A stretch of 64,000 nucleotides of DNA from a virus. Taxonomy: Duplodnaviria > Caudoviricetes. Under the pieces are notes generated by a model. That model was not told where the DNA came from and made no database searches. It saw only the letters and a program-made list of their open reading frames with translations. Position numbers and translations under genes: made by a program. Of the stretch, positions 3,216 through 35,500 are shown in pieces. Location of the stretch: IMG/VR virus record IMGVR_UViG_3300020419_001132; one strand, given 5' to 3'. Every line of letters begins with the position of its first letter. Position 1 is the stretch's first letter.

Positions 3216-3890
3216 TTATTTATCTATATTTTGCCTGCTTACCAATTTGTCTATTCTTGCAAAACTAGTGCCAGCAATCAAATTACACAACATCAGAGTT
3301 GAATCATTTTTAGCATACATATATCGTCCAGCAACATAGCCGTTTTTCTTTATTTCATCATTAGTAGCAGGAGTAATTTTAACTTTATTTTTATTTCTCT
3401 CACACCAGTCACCAAATGAAGCTGGAAGAGGATTATTCCCAAATGTAATCTTATATTCATATGGAAAATCACCATTAACAATCATAGTTTTGTGATTATC
3501 CATTAAAAATTGTGCTAGTTTTGGATCTGGCTCATAAAACTCTGTAATAGATGTAATTTTTTTAGCTATACTTTTAAGCCAAGGTTTGTCATTAGAATAA
3601 ACTTTAACAACATTACCTTCACATCTTAACATATACTCATTTGTATACCTAAAACATTCATTAAAAAAAGTTCTTACATCAGTAAACTCGTCTTGTTTTA
3701 TTTGCTTCTCTTTCATAGTCTTTTTAATCCATAGAGGAAGACCAGATTCGTGAGAACGTTGTAAGTCATCTATAATAGACTTCGCATACCTAAAGTTTTT
3801 ATTTCTAAAGATACTAGCTATAGGATTTCTAAATGACATTCCATAAAGATATTTGTTGTAAAATAGTTTTTTTGTTTCAAACTTTTTCAA
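3216..3890 (-). CDS. Hypothetical protein
   Basis: 224-aa ORF overlapping the clpA stop. Confidence 0.65.
   Translation of the reverse strand: MKKFETKKLFYNKYLYGMSFRNPIASIFRNKNFRYAKSIIDDLQRSHESGLPLWIKKTMKEKQIKQDEFTDVRTFFNECFRYTNEYMLRCEGNVVKVYSNDKPWLKSIAKKITSITEFYEPDPKLAQFLMDNHKTMIVNGDFPYEYKITFGNNPLPASFGDWCERNKNKVKITPATNDEIKKNGYVAGRYMYAKNDSTLMLCNLIAGTSFARIDKLVSRQNIDK
3217..3224 (-). promoter_or_regulatory. T4-late-like promoter GATAAATA
   Basis: 5 nt upstream of ATG 3211, no SD. Confidence 0.6.
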
Positions 3891-6114
3891 TTTTTACCTT
3901 TTCGTAATCAAGTTTTATAGATTTACCTTTAACGACAATTTTACATTCGCCGCCTTCTTTTAATTCTCCAAACAACATTGCCCTTGATAAAGGCTTTTTA
4001 ATATCTCTATCAATTACACGTTGTAAGGGTCTTGCACCCATCTTACTGTCGTATCCTTTATCAACAAGATAATCTAAAGCATCATTGTCAATAGTAATTT
4101 TGATGCCTTTTGCTTCTACCTGTGTACGTAATGTTACTAGGAATTTACCAACAACTTTCATCATTACTTCTTTACTTAATTTTCCAAAAGTTACTACTCC
4201 GTCTAATCTATTTCTAAATTCGGGAGCAAAGTATTGTTTTAGTTCAGTATCTTCATATTTGAAGTCAAAGTCGTCGGAAAATCCTATAGACTCTTTTTCA
4301 GCTTGTTCTGCACCTAGGTTTGTTGTTAGTATGACTATAGTGTTACGTGCATCTGCTTCTTTACCATTACTTCCTGTCACTTTTCCGTTGTCCATTATTT
4401 GTAACAGTATTTGTGACACATCAGGATGTGCTTTTTCTATTTCATCTAATAGTAATACACAATTAGGATTTTCTTGTAGTTTAGTAATTAAGAGTCCGTG
4501 ATTTTCTTCGTAACCTACATATCCTGGAGGACTACCAATAAACTTTGCTACTGCATGTTTTTCTTGATATTCACTCATATCGAAACGTACAAGTTTTGTA
4601 CCTAAGTGTTTTGCAAGTTGTTTTGCAGTTTCGGTTTTACCTGTTCCAGTAGGACCCATAAATATAAAACTTCCAATAGGTTTATCTTCATCTTTCAATC
4701 CTGCTTGTGCTACTAGGATCTTATCAACTAAATCTTCTATTGCTTTATCCTGTCCGTACACACTACCTTTAATATTCTTTTCAAGATTTGCTAGGTTCTC
4801 AGTTTCTTTTTCAGCAACCTGTTCAGCAGGTAAATTTACAAGTTTTGCAAGTTCAAACTGAATATTTTCTTCTCCTACATTTCTCTCAATATCTTTTTCT
4901 TTTAGATTAAACCTACTACAAGCTAAATCAATCAAGTCAATAGCTTTATCAGGAAGTTTCTTATCACTTTGATATTTCACACTTAATTTAATTGCTGAGT
5001 CGATTGCATCTTCTGAAATAACTGTGTTATGAAACTCTTCATAATACTTTTTGATACCATTAAGAATATCCATTGTTATTTCTTGTGACGGCTCGTCGAC
5101 TGTAACCCTTTGGAACCTTCTCATTAATGCTCTATCTTTTTCAAAGTATTTTCTATATTCTTCCCAAGTGGTACTTGCAACAACTTTGATATTACCTTTA
5201 CTAAGTGCAGGTTTAAGCATATTAGCAAGATCGTTTGAGTTAGGTCCGCCACCTGATCCTGCTCCACTAATCATGTGTGCTTCGTCAATAAACATTATAG
5301 TTTTGCCTTTACCTCTAAGTCCAGCTAAAACAAGTTTGAACCTTTCTTCAAAGTCACCTCGATACTTAGAACCAGCTAGTAATGATCCTATGTCTAAGTT
5401 GTAAACATTGTATTCTTTTAAAAACTCTGGCACAGTATCATTGACAATATTCCAAGCTAATCCTTCTGCAATAGCAGTTTTACCAACTCCAGGATCACCT
5501 ACTAATAATACGTTGTTCTTGTTACGTCTACCTAATGCAAGTGCAATACTGTCTAGTTCTTCACTTCTTCCAATCACAGGATCAATTTTATTTTTTTGTA
5601 CTTCCTGATTTAGGTTTGTTGTAAATGCTCGTAAAGCCCGTTGTGCCTGTCCTGACATTTCATCTTCAGCTAGATCGTATTCCATTTCATTGCTGAGATA
5701 ATCATTTAATTTATCTTTTTGAACACCGCCTTTTTCTAAGTAGTAGTTTGCAACAGATTTCTTTTCTGATAATACACTTAATACAACGTCTTGTAAGTCA
5801 ATATGCGATCTTCCGCTGAAAAGAGTTTGTGTAAAAGCTCTGTTTAAAACCCTTTCAACTGATTGTGTTTTTTTAGGCTTATGTTTAGGATCATCTATTT
5901 CAATATCCTTACAACTATTTTTTAAATGATGCTCTAAATTAGTTTTGATAAATTCAACATCTGCACCAAAACCTTTCAACAAATTATATAAAGTTTCGCT
6001 ACACATTATACTGAACAATAAATGTTCAATAGTAACGTATTCGTGCTTTAGGTTTTTTGCATCTTTAATTGCTTTTTCAAATACTAATTTTAAATCTTCA
6101 CTAGGTTCTACCAT
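3877..6114 (-). CDS. clpA: ATP-dependent Clp protease ATPase subunit ClpA
   Basis: Clp N-domain, two AAA+ modules (GDPGVGKT, GPTGTGKT), Walker B motifs FIDEAH and LLDEIEK, IGF loop (ESIGF), MGARPL. Confidence 0.95.
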   Translation of the reverse strand: MVEPSEDLKLVFEKAIKDAKNLKHEYVTIEHLLFSIMCSETLYNLLKGFGADVEFIKTNLEHHLKNSCKDIEIDDPKHKPKKTQSVERVLNRAFTQTLFSGRSHIDLQDVVLSVLSEKKSVANYYLEKGGVQKDKLNDYLSNEMEYDLAEDEMSGQAQRALRAFTTNLNQEVQKNKIDPVIGRSEELDSIALALGRRNKNNVLLVGDPGVGKTAIAEGLAWNIVNDTVPEFLKEYNVYNLDIGSLLAGSKYRGDFEERFKLVLAGLRGKGKTIMFIDEAHMISGAGSGGGPNSNDLANMLKPALSKGNIKVVASTTWEEYRKYFEKDRALMRRFQRVTVDEPSQEITMDILNGIKKYYEEFHNTVISEDAIDSAIKLSVKYQSDKKLPDKAIDLIDLACSRFNLKEKDIERNVGEENIQFELAKLVNLPAEQVAEKETENLANLEKNIKGSVYGQDKAIEDLVDKILVAQAGLKDEDKPIGSFIFMGPTGTGKTETAKQLAKHLGTKLVRFDMSEYQEKHAVAKFIGSPPGYVGYEENHGLLITKLQENPNCVLLLDEIEKAHPDVSQILLQIMDNGKVTGSNGKEADARNTIVILTTNLGAEQAEKESIGFSDDFDFKYEDTELKQYFAPEFRNRLDGVVTFGKLSKEVMMKVVGKFLVTLRTQVEAKGIKITIDNDALDYLVDKGYDSKMGARPLQRVIDRDIKKPLSRAMLFGELKEGGECKIVVKGKSIKLDYEKVKIEKV

Positions 6115-6137
6115 TAACGTGTTCCTTTGTTTTCCAT

Positions 6138-6557
6138 TTATTCGTGTTCTCCACCTGGATCATTTGCATCTAATTTTACCTTTTTACCATTTACCCACAT
6201 GTTCTGCCTTGCTCTTGGTCCACTGTTATAACCACTCTTGAAGGTAAATGACTTTACAGTTTTATTTAAGCTATCAGGCCTTTTATCAGCCTCATTAAAG
6301 ATCATAACTGTAATTGCAGTACCTGATATTAGTGCGACGTGAGCTATAGCACTTATGCCAAATGCAGTTATACTTCCAACCATAATTGAAAATATTCCAC
6401 TCCACATAAATGCTAAAATCGTAAACACCATATGTGCTACCCTTGGATCTAGTTTACGTAATGCTGATCCTTCGATTGTCATAATAGAATTCCAAAAGTC
6501 TTTGATTATTACGTATACCAATACAGGAGGGTATGCTTTATAACTATTTTTATTCAT
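6138..6557 (-). CDS. Hypothetical membrane protein
   Basis: 139 aa with two hydrophobic helices; C-terminal GGEHE. Confidence 0.65.
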   Translation of the reverse strand: MNKNSYKAYPPVLVYVIIKDFWNSIMTIEGSALRKLDPRVAHMVFTILAFMWSGIFSIMVGSITAFGISAIAHVALISGTAITVMIFNEADKRPDSLNKTVKSFTFKSGYNSGPRARQNMWVNGKKVKLDANDPGGEHE

Positions 6558-6581
6558 CTTTCAATCTCCTAACTATTATAC

Positions 6582-6609
6582 ATTATACACATATTTAAAA
6601 AAAATGCAA
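6582..6609 (-). promoter_or_regulatory. sigma70-type promoter TTGCAT-N16-TATAAT
   Basis: Intergenic, upstream of the 139-aa ORF and clpA; a second TATAAT lies 7 nt downstream. Confidence 0.5.
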
Positions 6610-6610
6610 G

Positions 6611-7453
6611 TTATTTGGTAATATCTCTCTTTATGTTCTCTATCAGTTGCAGGTTCTTTTCTGATAATTTAGGTGTTTGGCAACCAATTTCAACGTATAA
6701 GTTGCCTCTTTGCTTTGTACGCATTACAGGTATTCCGTATCCATTTATACTAAATGTAGTTCCAGGATTTGTTCCTGTAGGTATTGTCAAACTAATAGAT
6801 TTACCTTCAGGAGTGTTTATGTCTATCTTGGTTCCTGTTAGTAAATCTAACATGCCTACGGATATTTTTGTATATATGTTATTACCGTCAACACGCCATC
6901 CAGGAGGATATCTTACTCTTATTACAACGGATAAGTCTCCCCTTGGTAAGTTAGGTATAGAGTTATCGCCGTATCCTGTAAATCTAAGGGTGTCTCCATC
7001 TTTCATACCTTCTGGTATTCTTACATCTAGTATCTCATTCTGTCCATTGGGCAATTTAAATGTTATAGTGTTTCCACCGCCTGTAAATACATCTTTAAAG
7101 TCTATTGTATAGTTTAGTCTTATATCTTTATTTTTACGAGGACGTTGTTGTGCAAAACCAAATGGACCTCCTCCAAACATTTGTTCAAACACGTCTCCCA
7201 TGTTTCCTGAATTAAAATGAAACGACTGGCTTTGATTTTGATTTACTTGCTGTGGATCAGCTGTACCAAATTGATCGTACATTTGGCGTTTTTGTGTATC
7301 ACTAAGGACTTGATATGCTTCGTTAATTTGTTTAAACTTCTCAGGATCTCCTCCTTTGTCAGGATGGTACTGCATTGCTTTATTTTTGAATGCTGTTTTA
7401 AGTTCTTTGTCTGAGGAAGATTTTGTTACCCCTAGAAGTTCATAGTAGTCCAT
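6611..7453 (-). CDS. dnaJ: DnaJ-family co-chaperone (class II/CbpA-like, no Zn finger)
   Basis: J-domain with HPD motif (YHPDKGG), G/F-rich linker, DnaJ C-terminal domain. Confidence 0.92.
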   Translation of the reverse strand: MDYYELLGVTKSSSDKELKTAFKNKAMQYHPDKGGDPEKFKQINEAYQVLSDTQKRQMYDQFGTADPQQVNQNQSQSFHFNSGNMGDVFEQMFGGGPFGFAQQRPRKNKDIRLNYTIDFKDVFTGGGNTITFKLPNGQNEILDVRIPEGMKDGDTLRFTGYGDNSIPNLPRGDLSVVIRVRYPPGWRVDGNNIYTKISVGMLDLLTGTKIDINTPEGKSISLTIPTGTNPGTTFSINGYGIPVMRTKQRGNLYVEIGCQTPKLSEKNLQLIENIKRDITK

Positions 7454-7462
7454 ACTACTACT

Positions 7463-7470
7463 TATTTAAA
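7463..7470 (-). promoter_or_regulatory. T4-late-like promoter TTTAAATA
   Basis: 9 nt upstream of dnaJ ATG; contains the upstream stop codon. Confidence 0.45.
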
Positions 7471-7915
7471 CGGTAACTTTGCCTTCGGAGATTAGACGTT
7501 CTCTATTTTTTAAATGCTGTGCATCTATTTCGTCTTTAGATCCACCAAAATATGCAACACCGTAGCCGTCATCAATCATAACTTCAGTAAGTTTTCTTTG
7601 TGCGTCTTTCTCACCATGGTATACTAAAAAGTCTCCTAGTATTCTACCAAACTTACCTCTACTGTCTTCACCTGATTTGTCTATGGTAGTTTTTAAAACT
7701 TGTATTGATCCTACAGGTAGATAACTTTTTACATATTCTTTTGATGCAAGGCCAAACTGCTTTTCTACTAAATCTCTAGTTCTAGATTCAGGAGTATCAA
7801 TGCCCATCATTCTCACACGTTCTTTGTGCATCCATACTCCGAATCCTAAGTCGATATCAACGTCAACTGTATCTCCGTCGACTACTCTTAAAATTTTTGC
7901 CTTATACTCATACAT
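7466..7915 (-). CDS. Staphylococcal nuclease-like (SNase/thermonuclease) protein
   Basis: VVDGDTVDV, RMMGIDTPES and GKFGRILG motifs; start moved to ATG 7915 behind an AAGGA SD. Confidence 0.85.
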   Translation of the reverse strand: MYEYKAKILRVVDGDTVDVDIDLGFGVWMHKERVRMMGIDTPESRTRDLVEKQFGLASKEYVKSYLPVGSIQVLKTTIDKSGEDSRGKFGRILGDFLVYHGEKDAQRKLTEVMIDDGYGVAYFGGSKDEIDAQHLKNRERLISEGKVTV

Positions 7916-7928
7916 TTTATAATCCTTT

Positions 7929-8447
7929 TTAGTTTCTATTTGCGAGAGGATTATCAAGAGCTCTTTGTAACTGTTTCTCCATGTCGTCTTGAAGATCTTT
8001 TATTTTACTTTCTAAAAGTTCTTTTGTAGTAGAGTTTTCTCTTATAAGCATGTCCTTTTGTGCAACATATTGGTTTAACAAGTCATCGCGTTTAGTATCG
8101 AATCTAGTTTCAGCATCGTCTATTAATGTTCTTGTTTTAGTTTCAACTTCATTAATATCATCTTCTACTTTGTCTATAATCTTTTCTAACCGCACTATGT
8201 CGTCACGCAGGCCATTCTTAATATCTCTTGAATAATCTAATGCCTCATCTAACTTTGTATTTATAACATCCATACGTGCATTAACTTGGCCAGTATCTAT
8301 GTTGGCAATGATATCTTTCATGTTTGAATAGTCTTTATAAAATTCAAATCCTGCCCATAGTCCTCCACCTAATGTACCCAAAAGAGGTAATATAAGTAGA
8401 AGCTTCCCTCCACTTAATTTAATTCCTCCATATTCAACTTCTGCCAT
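7929..8447 (-). CDS. Membrane-anchored coiled-coil protein
   Basis: N-terminal hydrophobic helix then heptad-rich charged region; AGGAGG SD. Confidence 0.7.
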   Translation of the reverse strand: MAEVEYGGIKLSGGKLLLILPLLGTLGGGLWAGFEFYKDYSNMKDIIANIDTGQVNARMDVINTKLDEALDYSRDIKNGLRDDIVRLEKIIDKVEDDINEVETKTRTLIDDAETRFDTKRDDLLNQYVAQKDMLIRENSTTKELLESKIKDLQDDMEKQLQRALDNPLANRN

Positions 8448-8456
8448 TTTTTCCTC

Positions 8457-10979
8457 CTATTTTAAGTTGTATTGTAATTCTTCCATTGCACCAAACTTAG
8501 GATCGTTTAAGAACCATCTAGAAAAATAATGATCCACAGTAGGCTTATCTGGATAAAATGCAATCTGTTCTATTTCTTTTTTATTGTAATCAAAACCTGG
8601 CACAAAAGAAATAAGTGCAAGGAGTTGTCGTTGTACTAACATTTGTTGTTCTATAGTTACTGCGTTTTCAATCTTCTTTGTTAATTCGTTGGCCTTTTTA
8701 GCAATTAACATCTTTAATTTATCATTTCTACTAGTGGGTTTTTTCTTAGCTTTTGGCTCTTCTTTAGTTTCCTCTTTTAGCTGTGCGATTTCTTTTTCAA
8801 TGTCATCTTCTTGTTCTTTACTGCCTCCAATTGATCCATCTTTTTCGCCTGGTGTTTTGTTATCTTCTTTAGACTTTTGTTTATCTTCTTTCTTCTCTTC
8901 TTCTTTTTCTTCAATCTCTTCGGACTCTTCTTTTCCTTCTTCAAGTTCTTCTTTAGCCTCATCAGCATTTGGATTGTTAGTTTCTTCTTCTAATGAAGCA
9001 ATCTCTGCTTCTATGTTATCCTCTTGATTAGATTGTCCATTATTAGACTGTGATTCTAAGGAAGCAATTTCTGCTTCTATGTTGTCAGACATTGCCATTG
9101 TGCCATCCATTGATTCTAGTTCTGCAAGTTCTCTTTCTATACTATCTTCCATTGCTGTCAAGTCAGATTGTACAATATCAACTTCTGGAACTTGTACTGT
9201 TTCAGTTGTTGTGTCGACAGTTGGTTGTACAAAATTTTGTACAGTAGGTAATCCTTCAATTTGTAAACCTGTATTAATATCTCCTATTATAATTTCTGTA
9301 TCTAATATTTCTTCAATTGGATCTATATCAGTTCCATCGTCAACAATTTGTATTGGTGATATGTAACCTGCACACGTTTCATCATATTGTGGATCAAAAC
9401 TACATTGTTGGTTAAAATACGCAACATCATAACCTATGCATGTAGTTTCATATAAAGGGTCAATGTTACATTTTGCTTCTTTATAACCTGTACATGTTGC
9501 ATCAAATAATGGATCTAATGCACATTGTTGATTCAAGTAAGCAGTCGCATGTCCTGGACACCCTTTATCATATAAAGGATCCAATGAACATTGTTGGTTA
9601 TAATATGCTTGTGCATATCCTGTACAGCCTGCATCGTATAATGGATCCAAAGTACATTGCTGGTTATAGTAGGCTGTAGCATATCCAGGACATTGTGTGT
9701 CATACAATGGGTTTAGTGAACATTGTTGATTGTAGTAAGCTGTAGCATATCCTGGACATTGTGCATTATATAATGCACTTATTGAACATTGTTGATTAAA
9801 ATATGCAGTAGCATATCCTGGGCATTGCGGATCATGTAATGCACTTATTGAACATTGTTGATTAAAGTATGCAGTAGCATAACCGGGACAGTTCTGGTCA
9901 TGTAATGCACTTATTGAACATTGTTGATTAAAATAGGCTGTTGCATATCCAGGACAGTTTTGGTCATGTAATGCACTGATTGAACATTGTTGATTAAAAT
10001 ATGCAGTAGCATAACCAGTGCAAGAAGTATCATGTAATGGATTTAAAGCACATTGTTGGTTTAAATAAGCAGTTGCATATCCAGGACAATTCTGATCGTG
10101 TAATGCATTTAAAGAGCATTGTTGGTTATAGTATGCTGTTGAGTATCCAGGACATGTTGGGTCATGTAATGGATTTGCTGAACATTGTTGTGTCATATAA
10201 GCCGCCGCATATCCTGTACAAGTAGGATCAAATAACGGGTTTTGAGTACATTGCTGATTAAACAATGCTACTGCATAACCTTGGCATTGCGGATCATATA
10301 ACGGATCGTTATGGCAAGGATTAGCTGAAAAGGTTAATTTTAATTCAGATTGAGCAACATTAAATTCAGGACCATAACGACCAGCCCAGTTTGCACTATC
10401 ACTTCCTTGTGCGAGTATGTTTATATCTGAAAAATATGACGGAGGTAAAAATTGATTAGGAAAAGTTTCCGATCCGGAATGAGTAGTCCAATTGTGAGAA
10501 TGGCCGTAATCATAAGTATATGTTTGATATGTGTTACCGTTGGAGTCTAATATTTCAACAGTGATTTCAAAATCATCTATTCCTGGTTGGTTTGTGTAGA
10601 TATTTGCGTTACCATTTTTAACTCGCCATTTATAAGTAAATCCGTTTACCTGTATACCTGCCTGTGCTAATGCAGTATTAATAGCTATAGTTGTGCTAAT
10701 AATTTCATCTGCACCACCCCAAATAAATCCACTGTCATTAGGTAATCTATTAGGAACAGATTCGTTTCCAACACCTGCTGGATTTCTACTTCCACCCCAC
10801 CAACCAGTACCATAAGTACCAGTCCAGTTCTGAGCACTGGGATCTAGTAAATCACCTGTCGTGGAAGTTTGGGGAGTTGTATTTACAACCTGTGCTGATG
10901 CATTACAGTAAAAGCAAAAGCATAAGAGCACTGCCAATAACGGCGCCAATACCCAAAGTAGCTTGTTTCTTTTGAACAT
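8457..10979 (-). CDS. Secreted protein with 15 tandem Cys-rich 22-aa repeats and an acidic C-terminal region
   Basis: Signal peptide ending ..NASA-Q; repeat NQQCxxxxLxDxxCxGYAxAY; start placed at ATG 10979 (GGAG 10 nt upstream). Confidence 0.8.
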   Translation of the reverse strand: MFKRNKLLWVLAPLLAVLLCFCFYCNASAQVVNTTPQTSTTGDLLDPSAQNWTGTYGTGWWGGSRNPAGVGNESVPNRLPNDSGFIWGGADEIISTTIAINTALAQAGIQVNGFTYKWRVKNGNANIYTNQPGIDDFEITVEILDSNGNTYQTYTYDYGHSHNWTTHSGSETFPNQFLPPSYFSDINILAQGSDSANWAGRYGPEFNVAQSELKLTFSANPCHNDPLYDPQCQGYAVALFNQQCTQNPLFDPTCTGYAAAYMTQQCSANPLHDPTCPGYSTAYYNQQCSLNALHDQNCPGYATAYLNQQCALNPLHDTSCTGYATAYFNQQCSISALHDQNCPGYATAYFNQQCSISALHDQNCPGYATAYFNQQCSISALHDPQCPGYATAYFNQQCSISALYNAQCPGYATAYYNQQCSLNPLYDTQCPGYATAYYNQQCTLDPLYDAGCTGYAQAYYNQQCSLDPLYDKGCPGHATAYLNQQCALDPLFDATCTGYKEAKCNIDPLYETTCIGYDVAYFNQQCSFDPQYDETCAGYISPIQIVDDGTDIDPIEEILDTEIIIGDINTGLQIEGLPTVQNFVQPTVDTTTETVQVPEVDIVQSDLTAMEDSIERELAELESMDGTMAMSDNIEAEIASLESQSNNGQSNQEDNIEAEIASLEEETNNPNADEAKEELEEGKEESEEIEEKEEEKKEDKQKSKEDNKTPGEKDGSIGGSKEQEDDIEKEIAQLKEETKEEPKAKKKPTSRNDKLKMLIAKKANELTKKIENAVTIEQQMLVQRQLLALISFVPGFDYNKKEIEQIAFYPDKPTVDHYFSRWFLNDPKFGAMEELQYNLK
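9360..10330 (-). repeat. 66-bp in-frame tandem repeat array (15 units, one shortened)
   Basis: gaacattgttg anchor at 9784, 9850, 9916 and 9982 (66-bp period); translated unit C-x9-C. Confidence 0.92.
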
Positions 10980-11466
10980 CTTCTTTTGTCTCCAATTCTT
11001 CACGAGGTGGTATTTTTCCTGGATTGGATTGCCATTCGTCAGTAGCTTGTTCGCCTATTTTTCCTAAATAAGGACAAGGAGTTCCTGCCATTTCCATAGC
11101 ATCATAAACTCTCCTATCTTGACATAGTACTGATACTGCCGCAACTTTCATACCCATGTCGTATAAAGTTTTTGATATTTTTAATCTTTCACAGTTTGCA
11201 TCTCTTACAGTTTCACCTGTTGAAATACCTAGTATCTGTGTTTGTACTGCACCAGCCACTCCAACTGTACATAGATCAGACGATGAACTATTTACTGACG
11301 GAGTTATAGCAGATGGAGGAGGAGATATCACTATCGTCCTGCCCTCTGACTTTACATTGGAGTCGCTTTTAGTATTCGTATTTACATTAGTTTCGGCATA
11401 CGCATCTCCTAATGATCCAAAGACCACAGCAAACAACGTTGCTAAAACAATTACCCTAGTATTCAT
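10903..11466 (-). CDS. Exported Cys-containing protein with C-terminal membrane anchor
   Basis: N-terminal signal peptide, 4 Cys (DLC, NCE, LCQ, PCP), C-terminal hydrophobic helix. Confidence 0.75.
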   Translation of the reverse strand: MNTRVIVLATLFAVVFGSLGDAYAETNVNTNTKSDSNVKSEGRTIVISPPPSAITPSVNSSSSDLCTVGVAGAVQTQILGISTGETVRDANCERLKISKTLYDMGMKVAAVSVLCQDRRVYDAMEMAGTPCPYLGKIGEQATDEWQSNPGKIPPREELETKEDVQKKQATLGIGAVIGSALMLLLLL

Positions 11467-11492
11467 ATATAGTTTCCCTCACGTTAGGCAAG

Positions 11493-11500
11493 TATTTATA
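11493..11500 (-). promoter_or_regulatory. T4-late promoter TATAAATA
   Basis: Exact T4 late consensus 26 nt upstream of ATG 11466, GAGGG SD in between. Confidence 0.7.
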
Positions 11501-11539
11501 TTGCAATTTGTACCATTAACCAATTACACACCGGTAAAA

Positions 11540-11581
11540 ATCGTAAGAAATTTTACACCTGCAATCGTCAAAATTTTGACG
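11540..11581. repeat. Intergenic palindrome plus direct-repeat pair
   Basis: Perfect 16-bp palindrome CGTCAAAATTTTGACG (11566-11581); related copy ATCGTAAGAAATTTTAC 24 bp to the left. Confidence 0.7.
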
Positions 11582-11600
11582 GTTTTTTAAAGTTATTTAG

Positions 11601-11957
11601 TTATTTCCTGCTAGAAGTGTATAGTCCAAACCAAGCCGCACCTGCACCTACGACTATACTAATTAGTCCAGATTGTTCAAGTGTAGGATTATCTAGGTTC
11701 ATAAACCATATTACACACTTATATAACAAGATGATGTATGTAGTAATAAATATTCTTGGAAATATTCTCCAAGCATCGACGGCTTTTGCAAGATGAATAA
11801 TTTTAGCAAAAGGATTAGGACCTAGGTCTTTAACACTTGTATCTACTTCTAGGTCTAGCTTAACTTTTTTACTAATGCTTTCATTACTTGCTGGAACTGC
11901 AATCTCAGCATCTGGTGCCGGTGCAGTTTCTAAATCTTCAAGTTTCTTTCTAGGCAT
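11601..11957 (-). CDS. Two-TM membrane protein, holin candidate
   Basis: DAWRIFPR followed by two hydrophobic helices; lies in the lysis cassette. Confidence 0.55.
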   Translation of the reverse strand: MPRKKLEDLETAPAPDAEIAVPASNESISKKVKLDLEVDTSVKDLGPNPFAKIIHLAKAVDAWRIFPRIFITTYIILLYKCVIWFMNLDNPTLEQSGLISIVVGAGAAWFGLYTSSRK

Positions 11958-12414
11958 TTCTTCCCCCTCTTTTTATGTTTTCGATTTCTTCTTTGTTTCT
12001 AGCAATACTATCACTGTTTCTATCTATAGTTGCATCTTGTGCTTTATCTATAAGTTTCTGCATTCTTAAACCTTTTTCTATATCTGAATCTAAATGCAGA
12101 TCCTTATTAATAATTTTTTCTAGCTTTAATGAACCTATACGATCATTAGCAACATATCGCCAAGTATAACCTCTGGATCCATAACATCCAAATACAGTTT
12201 CTCGTAAACCTATTTTTACAATTATAGATTGTTCCCCATCTAGTATTACTTCGTCGCCCTCGTTAAAAGCAGGATTAAATCTAAACTTCAATCCTTGCAT
12301 AAAGTTTGTAGCAAAATCTTTGAACCAAAAAGCGGCACTGATGCTTATTAGGATAGCAATCCAAGGAACCATCATAGTGGCAAAGTCTAATCCCAACTTA
12401 TCAAACGCTTCCAT
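11950..12414 (-). CDS. Truncated MscS-like protein (TM3 + beta domain)
   Basis: FKDFATNFMQGL..AFNEGDEVILDG..IVKIGLRET follows the MscS pattern LQxxLxNxxAG..PFxxGDxIxxxG..VxxIxLRxT. Confidence 0.65.
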   Translation of the reverse strand: MEAFDKLGLDFATMMVPWIAILISISAAFWFKDFATNFMQGLKFRFNPAFNEGDEVILDGEQSIIVKIGLRETVFGCYGSRGYTWRYVANDRIGSLKLEKIINKDLHLDSDIEKGLRMQKLIDKAQDATIDRNSDSIARNKEEIENIKRGGRNA

Positions 12415-12699
12415 CTATTTCTCCAGTTTCTTTATTCTTGCTTCTAATTCATCGATCTTTTTAGTTACATGTGGATACTTTTTACGCCATGCGTCTTTTG
12501 GTTGTTCAAACCAAGTCCACCCCCATCTTTGAACTAAAAAGTCAAGTACTTGATCAAACTTGCCATAACACCAGATTCCAATTCTAGTGTCTTTGATATA
12601 GGTAGAGAATGCTAGTCCTAGTAATGAACCTGCTATTGCGGTGTAAATCCACAGACGGTCACCCGCCATTCTTTCTACCATGTTCCAAATTGTTTCCAT
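12415..12699 (-). CDS. Small membrane protein in lysis cassette
   Basis: One TM helix, basic C-terminus; late promoter 6 nt upstream. Confidence 0.65.
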   Translation of the reverse strand: METIWNMVERMAGDRLWIYTAIAGSLLGLAFSTYIKDTRIGIWCYGKFDQVLDFLVQRWGWTWFEQPKDAWRKKYPHVTKKIDELEARIKKLEK

Positions 12700-12705
12700 C
12701 AATAG

Positions 12706-12713
12706 TATTTATA
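12706..12713 (-). promoter_or_regulatory. T4-late promoter TATAAATA
   Basis: Exact consensus 6 nt upstream of ATG 12699, no SD. Confidence 0.7.
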
Positions 12714-12726
12714 TTGATTTCATTTG

Positions 12727-13125
12727 CTATTTGTCAGTGGTTTCTTCTTGGTCAGGTTTAACTGCTTCTTCGTAATATACAATGATTTCAGTTTGTTGTT
12801 CTATATAACGTCTAAGGTCGGCTATGTTAATTGCAAGGTTTTCATAATCCTTCATAGAAAGAACCACATATGCAAGTTCGCCGTGTTCAGCAGTAAATTC
12901 TTTCACGAAGGATTCGTAGTTATCTTTAGTAACAACGTATACTCTAGTGTCTACTAGATCAATTGGTTTTGGTCGAGCTACTGTCGGTACTGTTGTCTTC
13001 TCTATCTGTGTTACTATTTTCACTTCCGGTTCGCGGAACGACGAGCAACCAGTTAGGAAGAGGAGTATCGCCATCACCGCCAGTAGCGGCTTCCAACTCG
13101 CGCCATAATTTAGCTGTGGCACCAT
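12727..13125 (-). CDS. o-spanin (Rz1-like lipoprotein)
   Basis: Lipobox FLTG-C after a hydrophobic stretch; overlaps the 3' end of the i-spanin gene; exact start uncertain. Confidence 0.75.
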   Translation of the reverse strand: MVPQLNYGASWKPLLAVMAILLFLTGCSSFREPEVKIVTQIEKTTVPTVARPKPIDLVDTRVYVVTKDNYESFVKEFTAEHGELAYVVLSMKDYENLAINIADLRRYIEQQTEIIVYYEEAVKPDQEETTDK

Positions 13126-13447
13126 TCATCCTTCCTTCTAAGTCTTTACTATCTCTTATAGCATCCTGCACTAGATCTAACTCACGTAGTCTATTGCGTA
13201 AGTTATCACCGTACTGTTCTGCTTTTTGTAAGTCTTTTGTTAATTGATCTGATAAGTTGTTTAGTCTAATATTATCTTCTTTAAGTAATGCTAAACTTTT
13301 TTCAGTAGTTTCTACTGCTGTTTCCAGTTTAGCATTATTAAGTCTCATAATTTCAAGATTGGATTGTAATTGTTTTACGTAAAATAGTCCACCACCAGCC
13401 GCGGCCAGAATAATAAACACCAACGCAATTTTTAATCCACTAAACAT
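12959..13447 (-). CDS. i-spanin (Rz-like)
   Basis: N-terminal TM helix plus long coiled coil, immediately after the endolysin. Confidence 0.75.
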   Translation of the reverse strand: MFSGLKIALVFIILAAAGGGLFYVKQLQSNLEIMRLNNAKLETAVETTEKSLALLKEDNIRLNNLSDQLTKDLQKAEQYGDNLRNRLRELDLVQDAIRDSKDLEGRMNGATAKLWRELEAATGGDGDTPLPNWLLVVPRTGSENSNTDREDNSTDSSSTKTN

Positions 13448-13452
13448 AGTTG

Positions 13453-13460
13453 TATTTACC
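13453..13460 (-). promoter_or_regulatory. T4-late-like promoter GGTAAATA
   Basis: 5 nt upstream of ATG 13447; its TAA is the endolysin stop. Confidence 0.55.
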
Positions 13461-14304
13461 CTAACAACTTTCCCAAGGTTTTTGGGCCAACAATACCGTC
13501 AGCAACTAGTCCATTTGAACTTTGCCAATGCTTTACAATTTTTGCAGTACCTGGACCAAAAATTCCATCAGCAGGATCAATATCAAGTTTCTCTTGTACT
13601 TCAGATACTAATGGTCCTCTGGAACCTTGTCTTATTGTTTGATTATACTCTATTTCTGGTTCTTCAAAATCACCACCCAGCACGTCTAATGCATGAATGT
13701 AATGTTTTTTACGATCGTCTAAACCAATTGTTCCACCGTTGATGCGTTTAGTCATACCAACAATATCTTGTGCATCACAATACTTGTTGATATTATTTGT
13801 ATCCCAAAACCAACATGCACTATCTAATGCTCCTGCTTTGGTTCTGACATAGTCTACTGCTTCTTCTGGTGTTTTTTCTACAGCTTTTGCGAATTCTGTG
13901 TAGTTGTACCTTCCTGTGAGCTGAAGTATTCCACCACCCCTAAAACGCCAACCATCGCCAGAGGCAGTATCGCCGTTATCCATCCTACTTGCATAAATGA
14001 CATTAGCAATTTTTTCTGGTTGTCTGTGGTATTCATTTGCATCTCTCCCAGCTCTTCTAAAATACTTGGGGAATATAGAATTTAATGCTTTGGCGCTATA
14101 GTTTAAATTTTCACTTAAGACTCTAAAGCCGCCGGACTCATGTCCACATTGTGCTACAAATCCTGCAACACGTTCTATAGTATTAACTTCCCATAATGGT
14201 AAGATTTCGCACATAGCATTGTACCAATCTCGCCAGTCATCTCTATGGATAAGCTCTTCAGCCATCCACTCTTCAAAATTAAATTTAAAGTGTTCTTTAG
14301 CCAT
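13456..14304 (-). CDS. Endolysin, glycoside hydrolase family 19 with C-terminal PG-binding domain
   Basis: AQCGHESGGF, ENLNYSA, GDGWRFRGGGILQLTGRYNY; C-terminal DGIFGPGT..DGIVGPKT. Confidence 0.92.
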   Translation of the reverse strand: MAKEHFKFNFEEWMAEELIHRDDWRDWYNAMCEILPLWEVNTIERVAGFVAQCGHESGGFRVLSENLNYSAKALNSIFPKYFRRAGRDANEYHRQPEKIANVIYASRMDNGDTASGDGWRFRGGGILQLTGRYNYTEFAKAVEKTPEEAVDYVRTKAGALDSACWFWDTNNINKYCDAQDIVGMTKRINGGTIGLDDRKKHYIHALDVLGGDFEEPEIEYNQTIRQGSRGPLVSEVQEKLDIDPADGIFGPGTAKIVKHWQSSNGLVADGIVGPKTLGKLLG

Positions 14305-18878: not shown

Positions 18879-18907
18879 ATTATAGCAGTAAAATGTCTGC
18901 TTGTCAA
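18879..18907 (-). promoter_or_regulatory. Perfect sigma70 promoter TTGACA-N17-TATAAT
   Basis: Exact consensus upstream of the clamp loader; the -35 contains the halogenase TGA stop. Confidence 0.85.
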
Positions 18908-20433
18908 TGGAATTTTTGGTAAAAATCAACACTATTTTGGAAACTATCTGTATATTTTCTTTTTTCTTGATGTACTTTGTTTATCTTTATATCTAAATTT
19001 TTAAGCTCTTCTGGCAAACTACTACCCCAAAAATTAGCATTTGAGTCTTTAAACATATTATAAGGAGTCATTTTATGTCCAGCTATCATATATAAAACTG
19101 CACCAAACTCCTCCCAACTCAGTCTATTTTCTATTTCCCAATATGGACAACCCATAAGTTCATAAACTTGTCTTAATAAAGGACTGTCTGTAAAATTTTG
19201 TTGTTGTATGTCTTTCCAATATTGATTGTCATCTCTAGAAGTCATTGCATAGTGTAATGATATAAAATCTGCAAAGTATAAAAATTGTTCTCTACAGTTA
19301 TGATTAAATGCTTGTGCATCAAAATTATTTAAGGTTTCTTTATTATGTGCTATATTTACAAACTGTAATAAAAATTCATGAACACTCATAAGTCCGTTCG
19401 ACTCTAATGGTTCTATAAATGCGCCACTTAATCCAATGCTGATACAATTCTTTACCCACATTCTTTCACTCATACCATTACGCATTCTAATGTGTTTAAA
19501 TTCCATTTCATTTGCAATTGGTCCTAAGTAACTTTTATACTCTTTTAATGCATCTTCGGAGGTAATGTAATCATCACAATAATTATATCCTGTCCCAATC
19601 CTCTCCCATGTTGGTATTTCCCATACCCATCCATAGTCAAGAGCTACACTATTTGTATATAATTTTAATTGTTCTTTTTTGTTTTCGTAAGGCCTAGCAC
19701 CTGCCCATGCACAATTTGTATATGTTTTGTTGTTAAAACCTCTCCAAGGTTCATTTAGTACACCTTCTATTAATACTCTTTTAAACCCTGTACAATCAAA
19801 GAACAGATCTGCCTTTAGACGTCCTTGGTCTGTCCTTATGTATTCTATGTATCCGTTTTCATCTTGATCTGCACCTGTGACATCCGCGACAATATGCTTT
19901 ACACCTTTTGGTTTGCAATATTCGTCACGTAAGTATCCATAAAATTTATGTGTATCAAAATGCCAGGCGGCATCTTTTTCTATACACCATCCATTAGGTA
20001 AGACTATATCTGGTACCTTGTTTTCTTCTATACAGTAATTTATAGGTGAACAGTCGTTTACAAAGTCTTCAAAAGGAACCTGCTTGTGAAATTGATATCC
20101 AAACCAGTTTGATATATTATAATATCGTTCGTCTAGTCTTCCAAAAGGATAATGAAACCCCACCTTATCATTTTTATGAAAGTTTTCAAATCTAATACTT
20201 AATTTATTAGTTGCATTACATTTTGTAAGAAAATCTATATCTGGAATTTCAAGAAAATTTTGCCATCTCCGCATTAATTGTGTAGTGCTTTCGCCTACAC
20301 CTACTACAGGTTGGTTTGCAGATTCTACCACTGTTATCTTTTTATTAGGAAATGCTTTTACTAATGTAGCCGCGGTCATCCAACCTGCACTACCACCTCC
20401 TACTACAATTATGCTATTAAACTTCATATACAT
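18904..20433 (-). CDS. Flavin-dependent (tryptophan halogenase-family) protein
   Basis: GGGSAG FAD motif, VGEST, NATNK (catalytic Lys position), WVWEIP, FIEPLES. Confidence 0.9.
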   Translation of the reverse strand: MYMKFNSIIVVGGGSAGWMTAATLVKAFPNKKITVVESANQPVVGVGESTTQLMRRWQNFLEIPDIDFLTKCNATNKLSIRFENFHKNDKVGFHYPFGRLDERYYNISNWFGYQFHKQVPFEDFVNDCSPINYCIEENKVPDIVLPNGWCIEKDAAWHFDTHKFYGYLRDEYCKPKGVKHIVADVTGADQDENGYIEYIRTDQGRLKADLFFDCTGFKRVLIEGVLNEPWRGFNNKTYTNCAWAGARPYENKKEQLKLYTNSVALDYGWVWEIPTWERIGTGYNYCDDYITSEDALKEYKSYLGPIANEMEFKHIRMRNGMSERMWVKNCISIGLSGAFIEPLESNGLMSVHEFLLQFVNIAHNKETLNNFDAQAFNHNCREQFLYFADFISLHYAMTSRDDNQYWKDIQQQNFTDSPLLRQVYELMGCPYWEIENRLSWEEFGAVLYMIAGHKMTPYNMFKDSNANFWGSSLPEELKNLDIKINKVHQEKRKYTDSFQNSVDFYQKFH

Positions 20434-32003: not shown

Positions 32004-32541
32004 GTAGATCTGCCCAACCTGCTGTACTGTCATTGTTTGCGTCTGCGGCATAACCTTGAAATTTTCCTGTAGTTTTATTATATACTAGTAATCCTTCGGC
32101 TACTGTAAGTGCGTCTATTTGTGCTTGTGTCAACATAGGTGGTTTAAAACTGCTTGGTTCAGTTGGTCCTACTATTTTACCTGCAACACCATCTACTAGT
32201 AATGTACTATCATCTGCAAACAAACTTCCTGTGACATCTGCATCTACTTTAATACTAGCACCGTTAACAAGTAAGTTTCCTGAACTATCTGCTTGAAGTC
32301 TAGCATTACCTAAATATATAAAATCTCTTACATATAAATCAGACCATTTTTTAGTTGATGAACCTAGTGCAAAGCCGCCGTCTGTGGTTGGCACCATGTT
32401 AGAACCTATGCTATCTAAATCTAAAGTAGTAGAAGCATACAGTTCATTAAAGTTATCATTAATTTTATCAAATGCTGTTCTTAAAGGATCGCCATCTCCT
32501 TTGTTTGCACTAGTACCAATGTTTATAAGTTGCTTAGCCAT
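31999..32541 (-). CDS. Baseplate/short fibre protein with gp9/gp10-like N-terminus
   Basis: INIGTSANKGDGDPLRTAFDKINDNFNEL. Confidence 0.75.
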   Translation of the reverse strand: MAKQLINIGTSANKGDGDPLRTAFDKINDNFNELYASTTLDLDSIGSNMVPTTDGGFALGSSTKKWSDLYVRDFIYLGNARLQADSSGNLLVNGASIKVDADVTGSLFADDSTLLVDGVAGKIVGPTEPSSFKPPMLTQAQIDALTVAEGLLVYNKTTGKFQGYAADANNDSTAGWADLH

Positions 32542-35500
32542 TACACTCTCCCTACTAGAACTTCAACAACGCCATATCCGTCGTCATCTTTTGTACCAAT
32601 TGCTTTACCTATAACTGTACCTACCACTGGGTTATTATCTACTATCCCGTGACCTTCTATTGCACTAGTAACAATTATATCACCTTTCTGTACTTTACCT
32701 AGTACCTTACAAGGTACTCTACCTTGAAGTGCTACAGCAACAACATGATCACCTTGTAAGTCGCTGTTCATTAAGTGTGCAGGATGTTCTGAAACAACAC
32801 CTACTACCTTTCTATCGCCTTTGTAAATAGTTGTTGTTACTTCTTGTTCACCACCTAGTACTAATACTGTACCACACTCGTACTCGTTGTCTGCCAAGTA
32901 ATTCTCTGCCAAGTCAGCATATTGTGCTGAAGTTGCTGTTCCACTAAACGTACTTGCATAAACAGTATTCCATTTTAAACTTCCGCCACCTAAGCTTCTT
33001 GTATTATTACCATCAGGTACTAAGTTACCTGTTATTTCAGTAGCAGTAGAATTTGTCTTTAATCTTACTGATCCTCCTGTGACAAATAGTATTGTATCAG
33101 CGGCTGAGTCTGCAAATCCTGTTCCTGCACCTATTGATATACCTGTACCACTAGCATCCTTTTCTCCTGGAGCTTCTATGAATGAACTATATATCCAATC
33201 AACACCTAAGAAGCTGTTACTTCCAAAACTAGATGCTGTTTGGAAATTACTTTCTGCACCAGTAAATCCTGTTTCTCCGATGTCTAAGTTACCAGGCATA
33301 CTTACTGTGATGCTAGAAGTTCCTGATGCTTCTAATATTGTAGCTTGTCCTGGAGTCTTAACCTGTAGTGTTGTACTGCTTAATCCTAAAACTTCATAAG
33401 TAGCATCTCCGCCTAAAATTAATGCTTCTGCTTGTATAGCGCCAGCTTTTATACCTGTACCTGCAGTTTTTCTTAAAACTACTGTGTCACCTGTTGAGGC
33501 ATCACTTAGTGATTTTGCACTATAAGTTGAAGCCGCTGTTCTAAGTAAAACATCTGTTCCACTTGAGTAAGCTGGGAATTCACTATCTCTTATTGCTCCA
33601 CCTTCATCTAATACAGTATCAAATGTTATTGCACTTACAGCACCATCACCTGCTACACTTCTACCCAAAACTCTATCTGTGCCAATGTGTGTTATCTTAC
33701 CAGGATCAATACCATCTGTTGTACCTGTTGCTGTTTGTAATTCTATAAAACCATTTGTAGCATCAAACTCATCTGCTTTAAATGCCGCTAGTCCTAAATC
33801 TGATTGCGAAATTCCACTTGCACTTGCAATAGTTCCTGCCGCAGTCATGTTTAGTTTGCTTTGAGCAATCGCCGCTCCTGCATTTATATCTGCGTTTTCA
33901 ATACTACCAGTTTCGTAATTTAATGAATACTCATTTACTGTAGCTGTTTTATTAACTACTAGGGCAACATCACTTCCTGTTGCTTTTGATACGTGTGTAT
34001 ATTCGTTGTATCCAACACCATTACTACTAAAGATTACATGCTGTGAAACTCCGTTGGTTAATGTTTGTCCATTTGAAAAAGTACCACTTGTAGCACTATA
34101 AATAATCTTTCTTACACTTCCTAATTGAGAATCTGTATAAGAACTTATTGTAACAATAGTTCCAGTATCACTGCCACCTGAAAGAGTATTGTTAATTACA
34201 TCTCCTGCTACAAATCCGCTACCTACAGTAGGTGGTCCTGTATATAATATCTTGTTACCTGTTGCAACAAGCATTTCGTTTGCGCCTGGAGAAGTTGTAT
34301 CAAAGTCTCTTTGGTTATCTATTCTATTATAAGATTCTGTATTGTCATCGACATAGTTCTTATTTGTAGCATCTGTGCCACTTGCAGGATTTGATACGTT
34401 TTGAACAAGGTTTGACCCCATGTCCAAGTTACCTTCCATATCACTTAGTCCATTAAGCGGTAAAAAGCCTGGTCCTATTCTATTTGAACTTCCTGGAATT
34501 TGTGCACCTGATTTAATATTAAATCCTAATGCTCTATTAATATAGTTTCCTATTGCTTTTTCGGTAGGTACTGCTTGACCTGAATCGTCTGCAAACGAAT
34601 CGTCTGCTGAGAATTCGTTAATTGTAACACCTTTCTTAAATCCAAGTGCATTAGCATTTGAAAGTCCTATTTCACCTGCAAAAGTAATATCACCAGTTGC
34701 TTGGTCTACACTAAAGAATTTACCTACACGGAAGAATCCGTTTTGATCTGTACTTACAAAGAAAACCCTACCTTTTCGTCTTTCCCAAACTTGAGATGAT
34801 GTTGCAGTATTTGCATCAGTATAAAATTCAGCCAATGTGTTAACCGGGTCACCTAAGATAACATTTGGATAGTTTGAATCGTTAAATCCTCCTGTACCTA
34901 TTTGTGTAAAGTCGTGTCCTGTGGCTCTAAGTAGGGATATAGAAACTGTAATCTCTCCAGTTGCACCTTGTGCCGCACCTGCTGTCAACGTTCTTGTAGA
35001 AGCCGGAACAACTTCGTGTACTCCGCCACCACTGTAACCAGCTGTATCAATATTGCTTCCTGCTACCTCACCTATGTCAATAAATGCCCACACATTGTCT
35101 GTAATAGCTTGTGTTGGTACACTATTTGCTCCTAATGCACCACTTCCACTTGCAGTAATTGTATTTGTAGTATCAAACGTTCCAACTACATCGTAAAGGT
35201 AATGTGTTGTGCCAGTGGCACTTTTTGCAACCTTTGCTGTAGCACCTGATGTAGCCTGTGTTAATGTTTCGTCTTTGACTATACTTACACTTCCAGTTGT
35301 TTTTAATTCTGCTACTGTATTATAATCTAGTACTCTATGTGTTTTAGCTTTCCAAAGGAATCGCATTCCACCTGCATACCCTGCATCTCCTGGTACCCTT
35401 GCTGGTTGTACTGAAGAGTCTTTTACAATTCTAGCAGTATCTGAGAATGTATCAGTACCGCTATTAATAGTGATTGTTGTTGGAATACTAGAGGCTCCTA

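Follow-up and report, generated by a model that had tools for sequence, protein, structure and literature searches.

The 64,000-nucleotide (nt) stretch of DNA analysed here (hereafter the window; IMG/VR record IMGVR_UViG_3300020419_001132, a virus of the Caudoviricetes) contains, between positions 7929 and 11500, three consecutive genes for exported or membrane-anchored proteins, which are named A, B, and C in this report. The same three genes recur in many phage lineages, and it is proposed that their products form a conserved, late-expressed, exported accessory envelope complex of the lysis phase that would be separate from the spanin, held at the inner membrane, and directed at a host glycan. 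This reading is offered with low confidence, at a probability of roughly one in three; within it, we infer that the three proteins bind one another, as well as their topology, their glycan target, and their role in lysis. Coordinates are those of the window, and all genes of the region lie on the minus strand in the list of open reading frames (ORFs). The features of the module are as follows:

11493 to 11500, minus strand: TATAAATA, a motif match resembling a T4-type late promoter, 26 nt 5′ of the gene A ATG.
10903 to 11466, minus strand: gene A, 187 amino acids, with a signal peptide, a Cys core, and a C-terminal hydrophobic tail.
8457 to 10979, minus strand: gene B, 840 amino acids, exported; its ATG at 10979 lies within the last 77 nt of A and has GGAG ahead of it.
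7929 to 8447, minus strand: gene C, 172 amino acids, with an N-terminal anchor, helices, and no Cys.

An earlier note on this DNA had claimed that an exact promoter motif heads gene A, and the copy of TATAAATA listed above is indeed present at that position. The motif lies in the largest intergenic gap nearby (11467–11600, 134 nt), and a GAGGG ribosome-binding site falls between it and the start of gene A. The total number of copies of TATAAATA in the window is close to chance (11 observed, 10.1 expected); their placement is beyond chance, as seven of the eight minus-strand copies are found in non-coding spacers and six of these seven sit 5–26 nt ahead of a start codon. In T4, the late unit has TATAAATA at approximately −10, where it is recognized by gp55 together with gp33 and the clamp. 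It is plausible from this arrangement that the copy ahead of A is used as a T4-type late promoter. A search of the 64-kb window found no homologues of gp33, gp59, or gp32, and a gp33-like coactivator (PF16805) is encoded on a related contig that bears the module. A perfect 16-nt palindrome, CGTCAAAATTTTGACG (11566–11581), lies between the end of the neighboring lysis cassette and the motif; it was not called as a terminator by a consensus scan, and no terminator is claimed. Within the module, A and B overlap by 77 nt, and B and C are separated by a 9-nt gap with a GGAGG ribosome-binding site.

The product of gene A had been described as a 187-residue protein with a signal peptide, four cysteines, and a C-terminal anchor, and each of these features is confirmed. 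The hydrophobic N-terminus runs to a predicted AYA↓E cleavage site and is followed by an Asn/Thr/Ser-rich stretch, a Pro-rich stretch, and a core of approximately 100 residues. The core (approximately residues 60–155) contains four invariant cysteines (Cys66, Cys92, Cys115, and Cys131) and a run of invariant polar residues, and the alignment identifies it as the best-conserved part of the module. The C-terminal tail is a hydrophobic 19-mer (residues 169–187, hydropathy 2.34). The AlphaFold2 (AF2) model of the core, with a predicted local distance difference test score (pLDDT) above 90, consists of a β-hairpin (residues 67–88) followed by four helices. Sequence and profile searches of the PDB returned no relative of A, and comparison of the modeled fold with the PDB gave no match (best Foldseek E value 0.93; best VIA-wide Z score 3.4), which is not proof of a new fold. 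Look-ups in the AlphaFold DB gave uncharacterized kin only, and the ESM Atlas gave nothing. The family is nevertheless large, comprising 1,169 clusters at 50% identity and at least 8,000 at 90% in public metagenomes.

Relatives of A differ in their ends and linkers. The C-terminal membrane segment is present in the A proteins of T4-like phages; among 86 diverse relatives, just 9 carry it. Long low-complexity stretches rich in Asn/Thr or Gly/Asn/Gln occur in A relatives. A lipobox-like string was found in none of 118 close relatives and in 6 of the 86 diverse ones. The DNA at 10903–10979 encodes both the membrane tail of A and the signal peptide of B, in two frames. In 36 of 44 loci (within L001–L091) A and B overlap, mostly by 62–86 nt and by up to about 110 nt; when A has no tail, the overlap falls to between −1 and 11 nt. 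A stand-alone version of the A domain forms the C-terminus of secreted proteins in the Ralstonia phages RSL1, RSP15, and RsoM2USA and the Achromobacter phages JWAlpha and JWDelta (for example, RSL1 ORF070 at locus L115, RSP15 ORF122 at L012, and JWAlpha gp25 at L116). These proteins are 300–360 residues long, consist mostly of Gly/Asn/Gln-rich low-complexity sequence, and end in a common conserved tail, DPIVRARLGLPPLK. It may also be recorded that gp53 of Roseobacter phage CRP-810, which lies upstream of gp51 and is labeled 'OmpA family protein', is an A homologue in which no OmpA domain was detected.

Gene B encodes the largest protein of the module, and the 840-residue length, β-rich head, 15 C-x9-C units, 22-residue (66-bp) period, acidic tail, and duplicated DNIEAEIASLE that had been noted for it are all present. 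The N-terminus consists of MFKRNK, a hydrophobic core, and a predicted ASA↓Q cleavage site, and the same start is seen in homologues such as P0011; B-like proteins at other loci also have N-terminal hydrophobic segments. Following the signal peptide, B can be divided into four parts:

10332 to 10892, minus strand: head, residues 30–216, a β-sandwich resembling carbohydrate-binding module (CBM) and galactose-binding domains in AF2, Foldseek, and VIA analyses.
9345 to 10331, minus strand: repeat region, residues 217–545, with 15 C-x9-C units.
8700 to 9344, minus strand: acidic tail, residues 546–760, 30% Asp plus Glu (composition, AF2).
8460 to 8699, minus strand: conserved C-terminal segment, residues 761–840, with a basic helix, LLALISFVPGF, RWFLNDP, and a terminal LQY.

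The AF2 model of B was built on 49 homologues and places the head at residues 38–218 with pLDDT values mostly of 80–89. The modeled head (residues 37–219) superimposes on known CBM β-sandwiches, the closest being the sugar-binding domain of Fbs1 (VIA Z score 13.0, root-mean-square deviation 3.3 Å over 152–155 aligned residues). Foldseek E values range from 6e-7 to 1e-4, again with the Fbs sugar-binding domain as the best match. The head also resembles CBM16 (VIA Z score 11.1) and the C-terminal lectin-like domains of the tailspikes and fibers CBA120 TSP4, K2-2 TSP, and Kp7 gp52 (Z scores 10.6–11.3). Judged by its modeled fold, the head is putatively sugar-binding. The similarity to Fbs1, CBM16/22/61, and the tailspike C-terminal domains is one of predicted fold, whereas sequence identity is only 12–16% with no Pfam match, and the B head differs from these domains in standing at the N-terminus of a secreted protein that continues into a Cys-repeat rod and an acidic tail. 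An ESM Atlas look-up gave a weak DUF642/CBM lead for B.

Of the 33 cysteines in B, 30 are arranged as 15 C-x9-C pairs at residues 222–536. The pairs recur with a period of 22 residues, with one unit shortened to 18, and the unit consensus is AYxNQQC-x-x-NPLYD-x-x-CPGYAT; Tandem Repeats Finder reports the corresponding 66-bp period at 9483–10220. In the AF2 model the repeats appear as 14 regular helices of 12 residues, after each of which comes a loop of 10 residues containing the x9 stretch, with pLDDT values of 75–85 that are lower in the near-identical central units. The cysteine spacing and the periplasmic location expected for B suggest that each loop is closed by a disulfide. The earlier note considered the central repeats to be nearly identical and to have expanded recently. 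The first statement holds for the protein, in which the central units are identical or nearly so, but not for the DNA, in which they share 54–59 of 66 nt (83–89%). The second is only partly upheld: copy number changes between close relatives, with 14 units in a relative 92% identical to B and 15 here; however, the two units with the same amino acid sequence show 7 differences in 66 nt. This level of DNA identity among the central units indicates that the array is not a fresh duplication. The variable length that had also been predicted is evident, as relatives have from 1 to 25 units. Among the 120 closest homologues of B the number is 5–25 and correlates with protein length (r = 0.93), short B proteins have a single C-x9-C unit (CFDPQSDPTCPGY), and the B proteins of cultured pelagiphages have none, being without a Cys array.

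The C-x9-C spacing of B recalls the twin Cx9C (CHCH) proteins of the mitochondrial intermembrane space. Membership of B in this group was rejected, as the Pfam match to MSS51_C scores 19.8 bits against a cut-off of 27 and the x9 stretch is a loop in the model. The x9 stretch of CHCH proteins forms a helix, and cross-links join two antiparallel helices, whereas the x9 of B is predicted to be a loop between tandem helices.

The acidic tail is predicted to be disordered with short helices (residues 546–750) and is followed by two C-terminal helices at residues 751–790. In this tail the helical motif D(D/N/S)IE(A/K/R)E(I/L)AxL(E/K) occurs four times; the copies at residues 632 and 654 read DNIEAEIASLE and those at 612 and 725 are relatives, and at least one copy is present in 115 of 120 B homologues. 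An [LMF]QY ending is likewise found in 110 of the 120. Over 3,300 homologues of B were found, all of them unnamed and lacking any Pfam domain. When GenBank phages were searched with the DNA or the protein sequence of B there was no match, and cultured carriers of the module were reached via A and C.

Gene C encodes an N-anchored protein, as had been claimed, with a single Gly-rich hydrophobic segment at residues 16–34 and a highly charged, helical remainder. The conserved N-terminal part contains GG..KL, the anchor, and a juxtamembrane FExYKDY..MK (FEFYKDY..MK here); the middle is a variable helix, and the C-terminal end, ALDNPLAN, is invariant. An NPL[AGS]x ending is shared by every C-type protein, the products of the C-like third genes in the cultured pelagiphages included. 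Sequence and profile searches of the PDB with C gave compositional matches alone (apolipoproteins, the heptads of fusion proteins, and generic amphipathic-helix proteins), and an ESM Atlas look-up gave nothing. Several side observations concern this family. The NPL of C-type ends recurs in the disulfide loops of the expanded repeats of B (C-S-L-NPL-Y-D-x-x-C), a likeness that might reflect a shared docking site, and the C proteins of podophages contain a His-rich insert, such as SHSHDMPKHSHEVGEHQHDEHGH. In addition, gp51 of Roseobacter phage CRP-810 (locus L010, 5321–5743) is labeled 'lysozyme' and has no lysozyme Pfam domain; its layout is that of C (GGFKFKG, a membrane anchor, a coiled coil, and an NKNPLGR ending), and to judge from the sequence its label is probably a mis-annotation.

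Hydropathy and the −3/−1 rule predict export or anchor signals on all three proteins, in agreement with the envelope targeting proposed earlier. These signals bear on the possibility that B is an ordinary virion fiber or decoration protein for which A and C serve as assembly factors. The resemblance of the lectin-like head to the terminal domains of tailspikes, the repeat rod of variable length, and the putative late promoter would all suit such a protein. Tailed-phage virions assemble in the cytoplasm, however, whereas A and B carry canonical cleavable signal peptides, C carries a membrane anchor, and a rod of Cys pairs requires an oxidizing compartment. Furthermore, the module occurs in myo-, podo-, and other phages with unrelated tails, and in this window it lies outside the structural gene blocks. 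A virion fiber is thus considered very unlikely.

The earlier note named failure of the three genes to co-occur across relatives as an observation that would count against it; they are instead found together in many phage lineages. The survey comprises 92 loci, 80 of them IMG/VR loci retrieved with a narrow alignment of A. The order A-B-C on one strand was found in approximately 65 uncultured loci (Tara and IMG/VR contigs) and in cultured pelagiphages of myo-, podo-, and other morphotypes. A homologue of C lies downstream of A on the same strand in 69 of the 92 loci, which represents most of the loci that are long enough. A 165-kb Tara Oceans contig has the same gene order and a B that is 92% identical, and on other T4-like contigs A-B-C follows gp32 or a T4-type spanin and lipase. 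In cultured SAR11 phages the triad runs from a secreted four-Cys protein through a large secreted protein with a β-head and acidic character to a small anchored helical protein ending in NPL[AGS]x:

Mosig: 00202, 00201, and 00200.
HTVC115P: gp54, gp53, and, further along, gp49.
HTVC202P: gp24–26.
HTVC023P: gp45, 46, and 48.
HTVC033P: gp46–44.
Baldr: 001, 003, and 004.

A search for A in 185,579 species genomes gave 22 hits, all in metagenome-assembled or single-cell genomes and none in isolates; these are probably phage contigs that were binned with cells. Near-identical copies of 7400–12000 are present in marine metagenome runs from at least 10 studies (2014–2025), and one metatranscriptome library contains contigs that are at least 99% alike on A, B, and C. 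Such recurrence marks the phage as common, without by itself proving transcription. The occurrence data are assembled contigs, and assemblies break in the central repeats (approximately 9800–9985); a low-support joint at 9543–9852 was disregarded.

The module occurs in two layouts. In approximately 45 loci the genes are simply A-B-C, whereas in approximately 14 loci A is followed by a short B, four more exported proteins, and then C. These gene orders identify A, B, and C as the conserved core of the module. The longer layout includes a 165-residue protein of pilin-like appearance and is one argument that the module builds an adhesive or aggregating fiber on the cell surface or in the periplasm, in which B, joined in some relatives by pilin- or chaperone-like proteins, would form the filament and A and C would be assembly factors. 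The rod-like repeat region of B, with its variable length, and the low-complexity Asn/Thr- or Gly/Asn/Gln-rich stretches of A relatives would also be in keeping with a filament. However, there is no gene for an usher, a secretin, or any other outer-membrane pore, no polymerization interface is evident, and the window is without pilin-like genes. A phage-built fiber is decidedly improbable on this evidence.

Conservation is distributed very unevenly over the module. Identity across loci is 53–77% for A and, where detectable, 30–73% for the C-terminus of B (54–73% in the T4-like group). The head of B is the most variable part of the module, with identities of 97%, then 64, 42, and 26%, after which similarity becomes undetectable; where the head has diverged past recognition, the C-terminal segment of B is still 54–73% identical. 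Hypervariability of the head alongside conservation of A and of the B C-terminus implies that the head behaves as a specificity domain. In the proposed accessory complex, a hypervariable head with the fold of a sugar module, combined with a conserved A and B C-terminus, is what would be expected of a host-specific ligand.

The same pattern is at the center of the main rival to the lysis-accessory reading, which is that the module acts in receptor masking, debris shielding, or superinfection exclusion. Here the head of B would bind the variable receptor glycan, either as nascent glycan in the periplasm or on fragments after lysis, with A and C anchoring and positioning B, with the result that progeny would escape loss to debris or that rival phages would be kept out of the infected cell. 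Hypervariability or exchange of the head within an otherwise conserved module matches the pattern of receptor-binding proteins, and the nearest folds to the head include the lectin-like C-terminal domains of tailspikes and fibers. The module moves among unrelated phage lineages that have SAR11 as a common host, and it coexists with a full lysis cassette (see below). Masking would, however, leave the repeated adjacency to endolysins unexplained, and no route across the outer membrane is encoded. A search found no paralogues of the head among the tail genes or elsewhere in the window, which also counts against a receptor-directed function. Moreover, the exclusion genes of T4, imm and sp, are early genes, whereas the module lies behind a putative late promoter. 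Masking is judged to be possible, though rather unlikely.

The strongest functional clue comes from the genes next to the module. A lysis cassette ends 134 nt ahead of A and contains the following features:

11601 to 14304, minus strand: the whole cassette, adjacent to the module (phrog_181; phrog_739/89; phrog_812).
13456 to 14304, minus strand: endolysin with GH19 and PG_binding_1 domains (phrog_181).
12959 to 13447, minus strand: Rz-like i-spanin (phrog_739/89).
12727 to 13125, minus strand: overlapped lipoprotein o-spanin with the lipobox LTGC (phrog_812).
12415 to 12702, 11950 to 12414, and 11601 to 11957, minus strand: three small membrane proteins of 95, 154, and 118 amino acids, respectively.

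Similar linkage is seen elsewhere, and the counts that follow are lower bounds, having been obtained with a small query set. A GH19 endolysin lies immediately 5′ of A in at least five other loci (L032, L033, L037, L067, and L075), and an endolysin lies immediately 3′ of C in at least three (L058, L076, and L077). Spanins adjoin the module in L003, L017, L084, and L090, and genes for peptidase M15 or lysozyme are found near it in HTVC023P, HTVC033P, and a freshwater podovirus. Two of the small genes of the cassette also recur directly beside A in other types of phage, namely those for the 118-residue (phrog_10198) and 95-residue proteins (L084, L090, and L092; L003, L017, and L063). That the linkage to lysis genes recurs across lineages and in varying gene orders is the best available clue to function and, together with the late-promoter motif, points to the lysis phase.

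Spanins are among the known systems that come closest to the module. Like the two-component spanins (lambda Rz/Rz1 and T4 PseT.3/PseT.2), the genes of the module are envelope-targeted, apparently late, and beside an endolysin, and their cysteines likely form periplasmic disulfides. Typical i-spanins are type II inner-membrane proteins with a coiled-coil domain in the periplasm; the single N-terminal hydrophobic segment of C, its charged helices that would extend into the periplasm, and its conserved C-terminus recall such a topology, and this likeness speaks for the lysis-accessory reading as well. It can be asked whether the module is an alternative or second spanin-like system in which C would take the part of an i-spanin and A, together with B, that of the outer partner, and which would bridge the membranes and disrupt the outer membrane after the wall has been cut. 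Adjacency to endolysins would fit this role, and A of T4-like phages, with its N-terminal signal and extreme C-terminal membrane segment, recalls the unimolecular spanin gp11 of phage T1, in which a single chain combines an N-terminal lipoprotein signal with a C-terminal transmembrane domain, and could in principle reach outward from the inner membrane. Unlike gp11, however, A has a type I site (AYA↓E) with no lipobox Cys, as well as a helical two-disulfide core. The module is also without the lipobox lipoprotein of an o-spanin, a small outer-membrane protein whose gene is embedded in, overlaps, or adjoins that of the i-spanin; the predicted cleavage sites are AYA↓E in A and ASA↓Q in B. None of A, B, and C falls in a spanin family of PHROG or Pfam, whereas two other genes in the window do (12959–13447 and 12727–13125), and both systems occur in one genome here and at four other loci. 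Finally, spanins have no counterpart to the very large, lectin-headed B. The missing lipoprotein, the missing spanin-family match, and the coexisting canonical spanins together argue that the module is not simply the spanin, and a second spanin-like system is regarded as improbable.

Other known systems were compared with the module as well. Proteins of the TonB/TolA type, which span the periplasm, likewise unite an inner-membrane anchor with a long charged spacer, which in B is first acidic and later basic, and with a binding domain at the far end that reaches the outer layers; one relative is labeled 'tonB' in GenBank. In the module, by contrast, anchor and arm are two different chains, C and B; neither sequence nor fold matches, and neither an ExbBD/TolQR partner nor a TonB C-terminal domain is present. 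The curli cluster of pelagimyophages was rejected as an equivalent of A-B-C, as it is a different gene set. Searches of A, B, and C against Pfam, NCBIfam, and PHROG gave nothing, sub-threshold matches, or families with no known function, and A and C have no relative in Pfam, NCBIfam, or the PDB. A description of the A-B-C module was not found in the literature on pelagiphages, spanins, or RSL1 ORF070, and the earlier view that the module is undescribed stands, in that no known family fits its proteins. With two proteins that have no recognizable relative, and with every test against a known system failing at least one defining feature, the module is rated as lying outside the known kinds.

A mechanism for the proposed accessory envelope complex can be sketched from these features. 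C would be anchored in the inner membrane by its N-terminus, with its long amphipathic helices projecting into the periplasm and its invariant NPLA end serving as a docking peptide. B would be secreted and would stay attached to the membrane by the conserved segment at its C-terminus, while its acidic flexible tail and disulfide-stapled helical rod would carry the lectin-like head outward. The head may then recognize a glycan that varies from strain to strain of the host. A would be a small two-disulfide domain, tethered to the membrane in T4-like phages by its own C-terminal tail, and may act as an effector or adaptor on a conserved envelope target. Together, the three proteins would loosen, detach, or hold outer layers at or just after lysis. 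A complex prediction with the core of A, the C-terminus of B, and the periplasmic part of C scored 0.00; it was run without controls and speaks neither for nor against binding.

Several observations weigh against an accessory role in lysis. The Rz-like i- and o-spanins are already present in this phage and at L003, L017, L084, and L090, such that a role of the module in outer-membrane fusion would be redundant, and the rarity of lipobox-like strings in A relatives (6 of 86) is also unfavorable. No B or C gene adjoins the stand-alone A domains of RSL1, RSP15, and JWAlpha, which are located away from lysis genes. In HTVC202P and Baldr the module precedes a terminase gene, with no recognized endolysin adjoining. 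Accessory cargo genes of any function gather near lysis cassettes, and adjacency to lysis genes is for that reason weak evidence.

On its other side, the module is followed by a further gene that had been noted as an SNase-like nuclease, an identification that is supported by Pfam:

7466 to 7915, minus strand: SNase-type nuclease, 149 amino acids from ATG (Pfam SNase E value 3.9e-9; phrog_452).

This protein has no signal peptide and is a neighbor rather than a member of the exported set. A nuclease gene recurs near the module at approximately eight other loci, where its position and strand vary; SNase-type nucleases without a signal peptide lie within a few kb of the module in L043, L066, L080, L084, L090, L091, and L092. 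Downstream of the nuclease (3877–7453) are genes for a full DnaJ (J domain and DnaJ_C) and a 745-residue ClpA/ClpB-like double-AAA protein (phrog_4871). Farther along the window are a tryptophan-halogenase-like gene (18904–20433) and a 3,252-residue ORF (32541–42299).

A broader and more speculative proposal, which is held to be rather unlikely, is that A-B-C represents a fourth functional class of Gram-negative phage lysis or exit proteins, beside holin, endolysin, and spanin. The module would then be a machine tethered to the inner membrane, in which the lectin head can be exchanged, the disulfide rod can be adjusted in length, and the tail is polyanionic; it would target a strain-specific envelope glycan, either to release or destabilize cation-stabilized outer layers in seawater or to neutralize receptor-bearing debris. 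A would be a new universal envelope effector, used alone by the Ralstonia and Achromobacter phages.

The carriers of the module include phages of SAR11, the most abundant marine bacteria. A common, conserved, envelope-targeted set in which two of three proteins have no known fold points to a gap in the understanding of phage exit, or of the interplay between phages and host surfaces, in the ocean. Cultured carriers (Mosig, HTVC023P, HTVC033P, and roseophage CRP-810) make the module testable, and stand-alone A-domain genes are available in phages of tractable hosts (Achromobacter phage JWAlpha and Ralstonia phage RSL1). The exchangeable lectin head, moreover, could serve to mark the host glycan type in uncultured phages.

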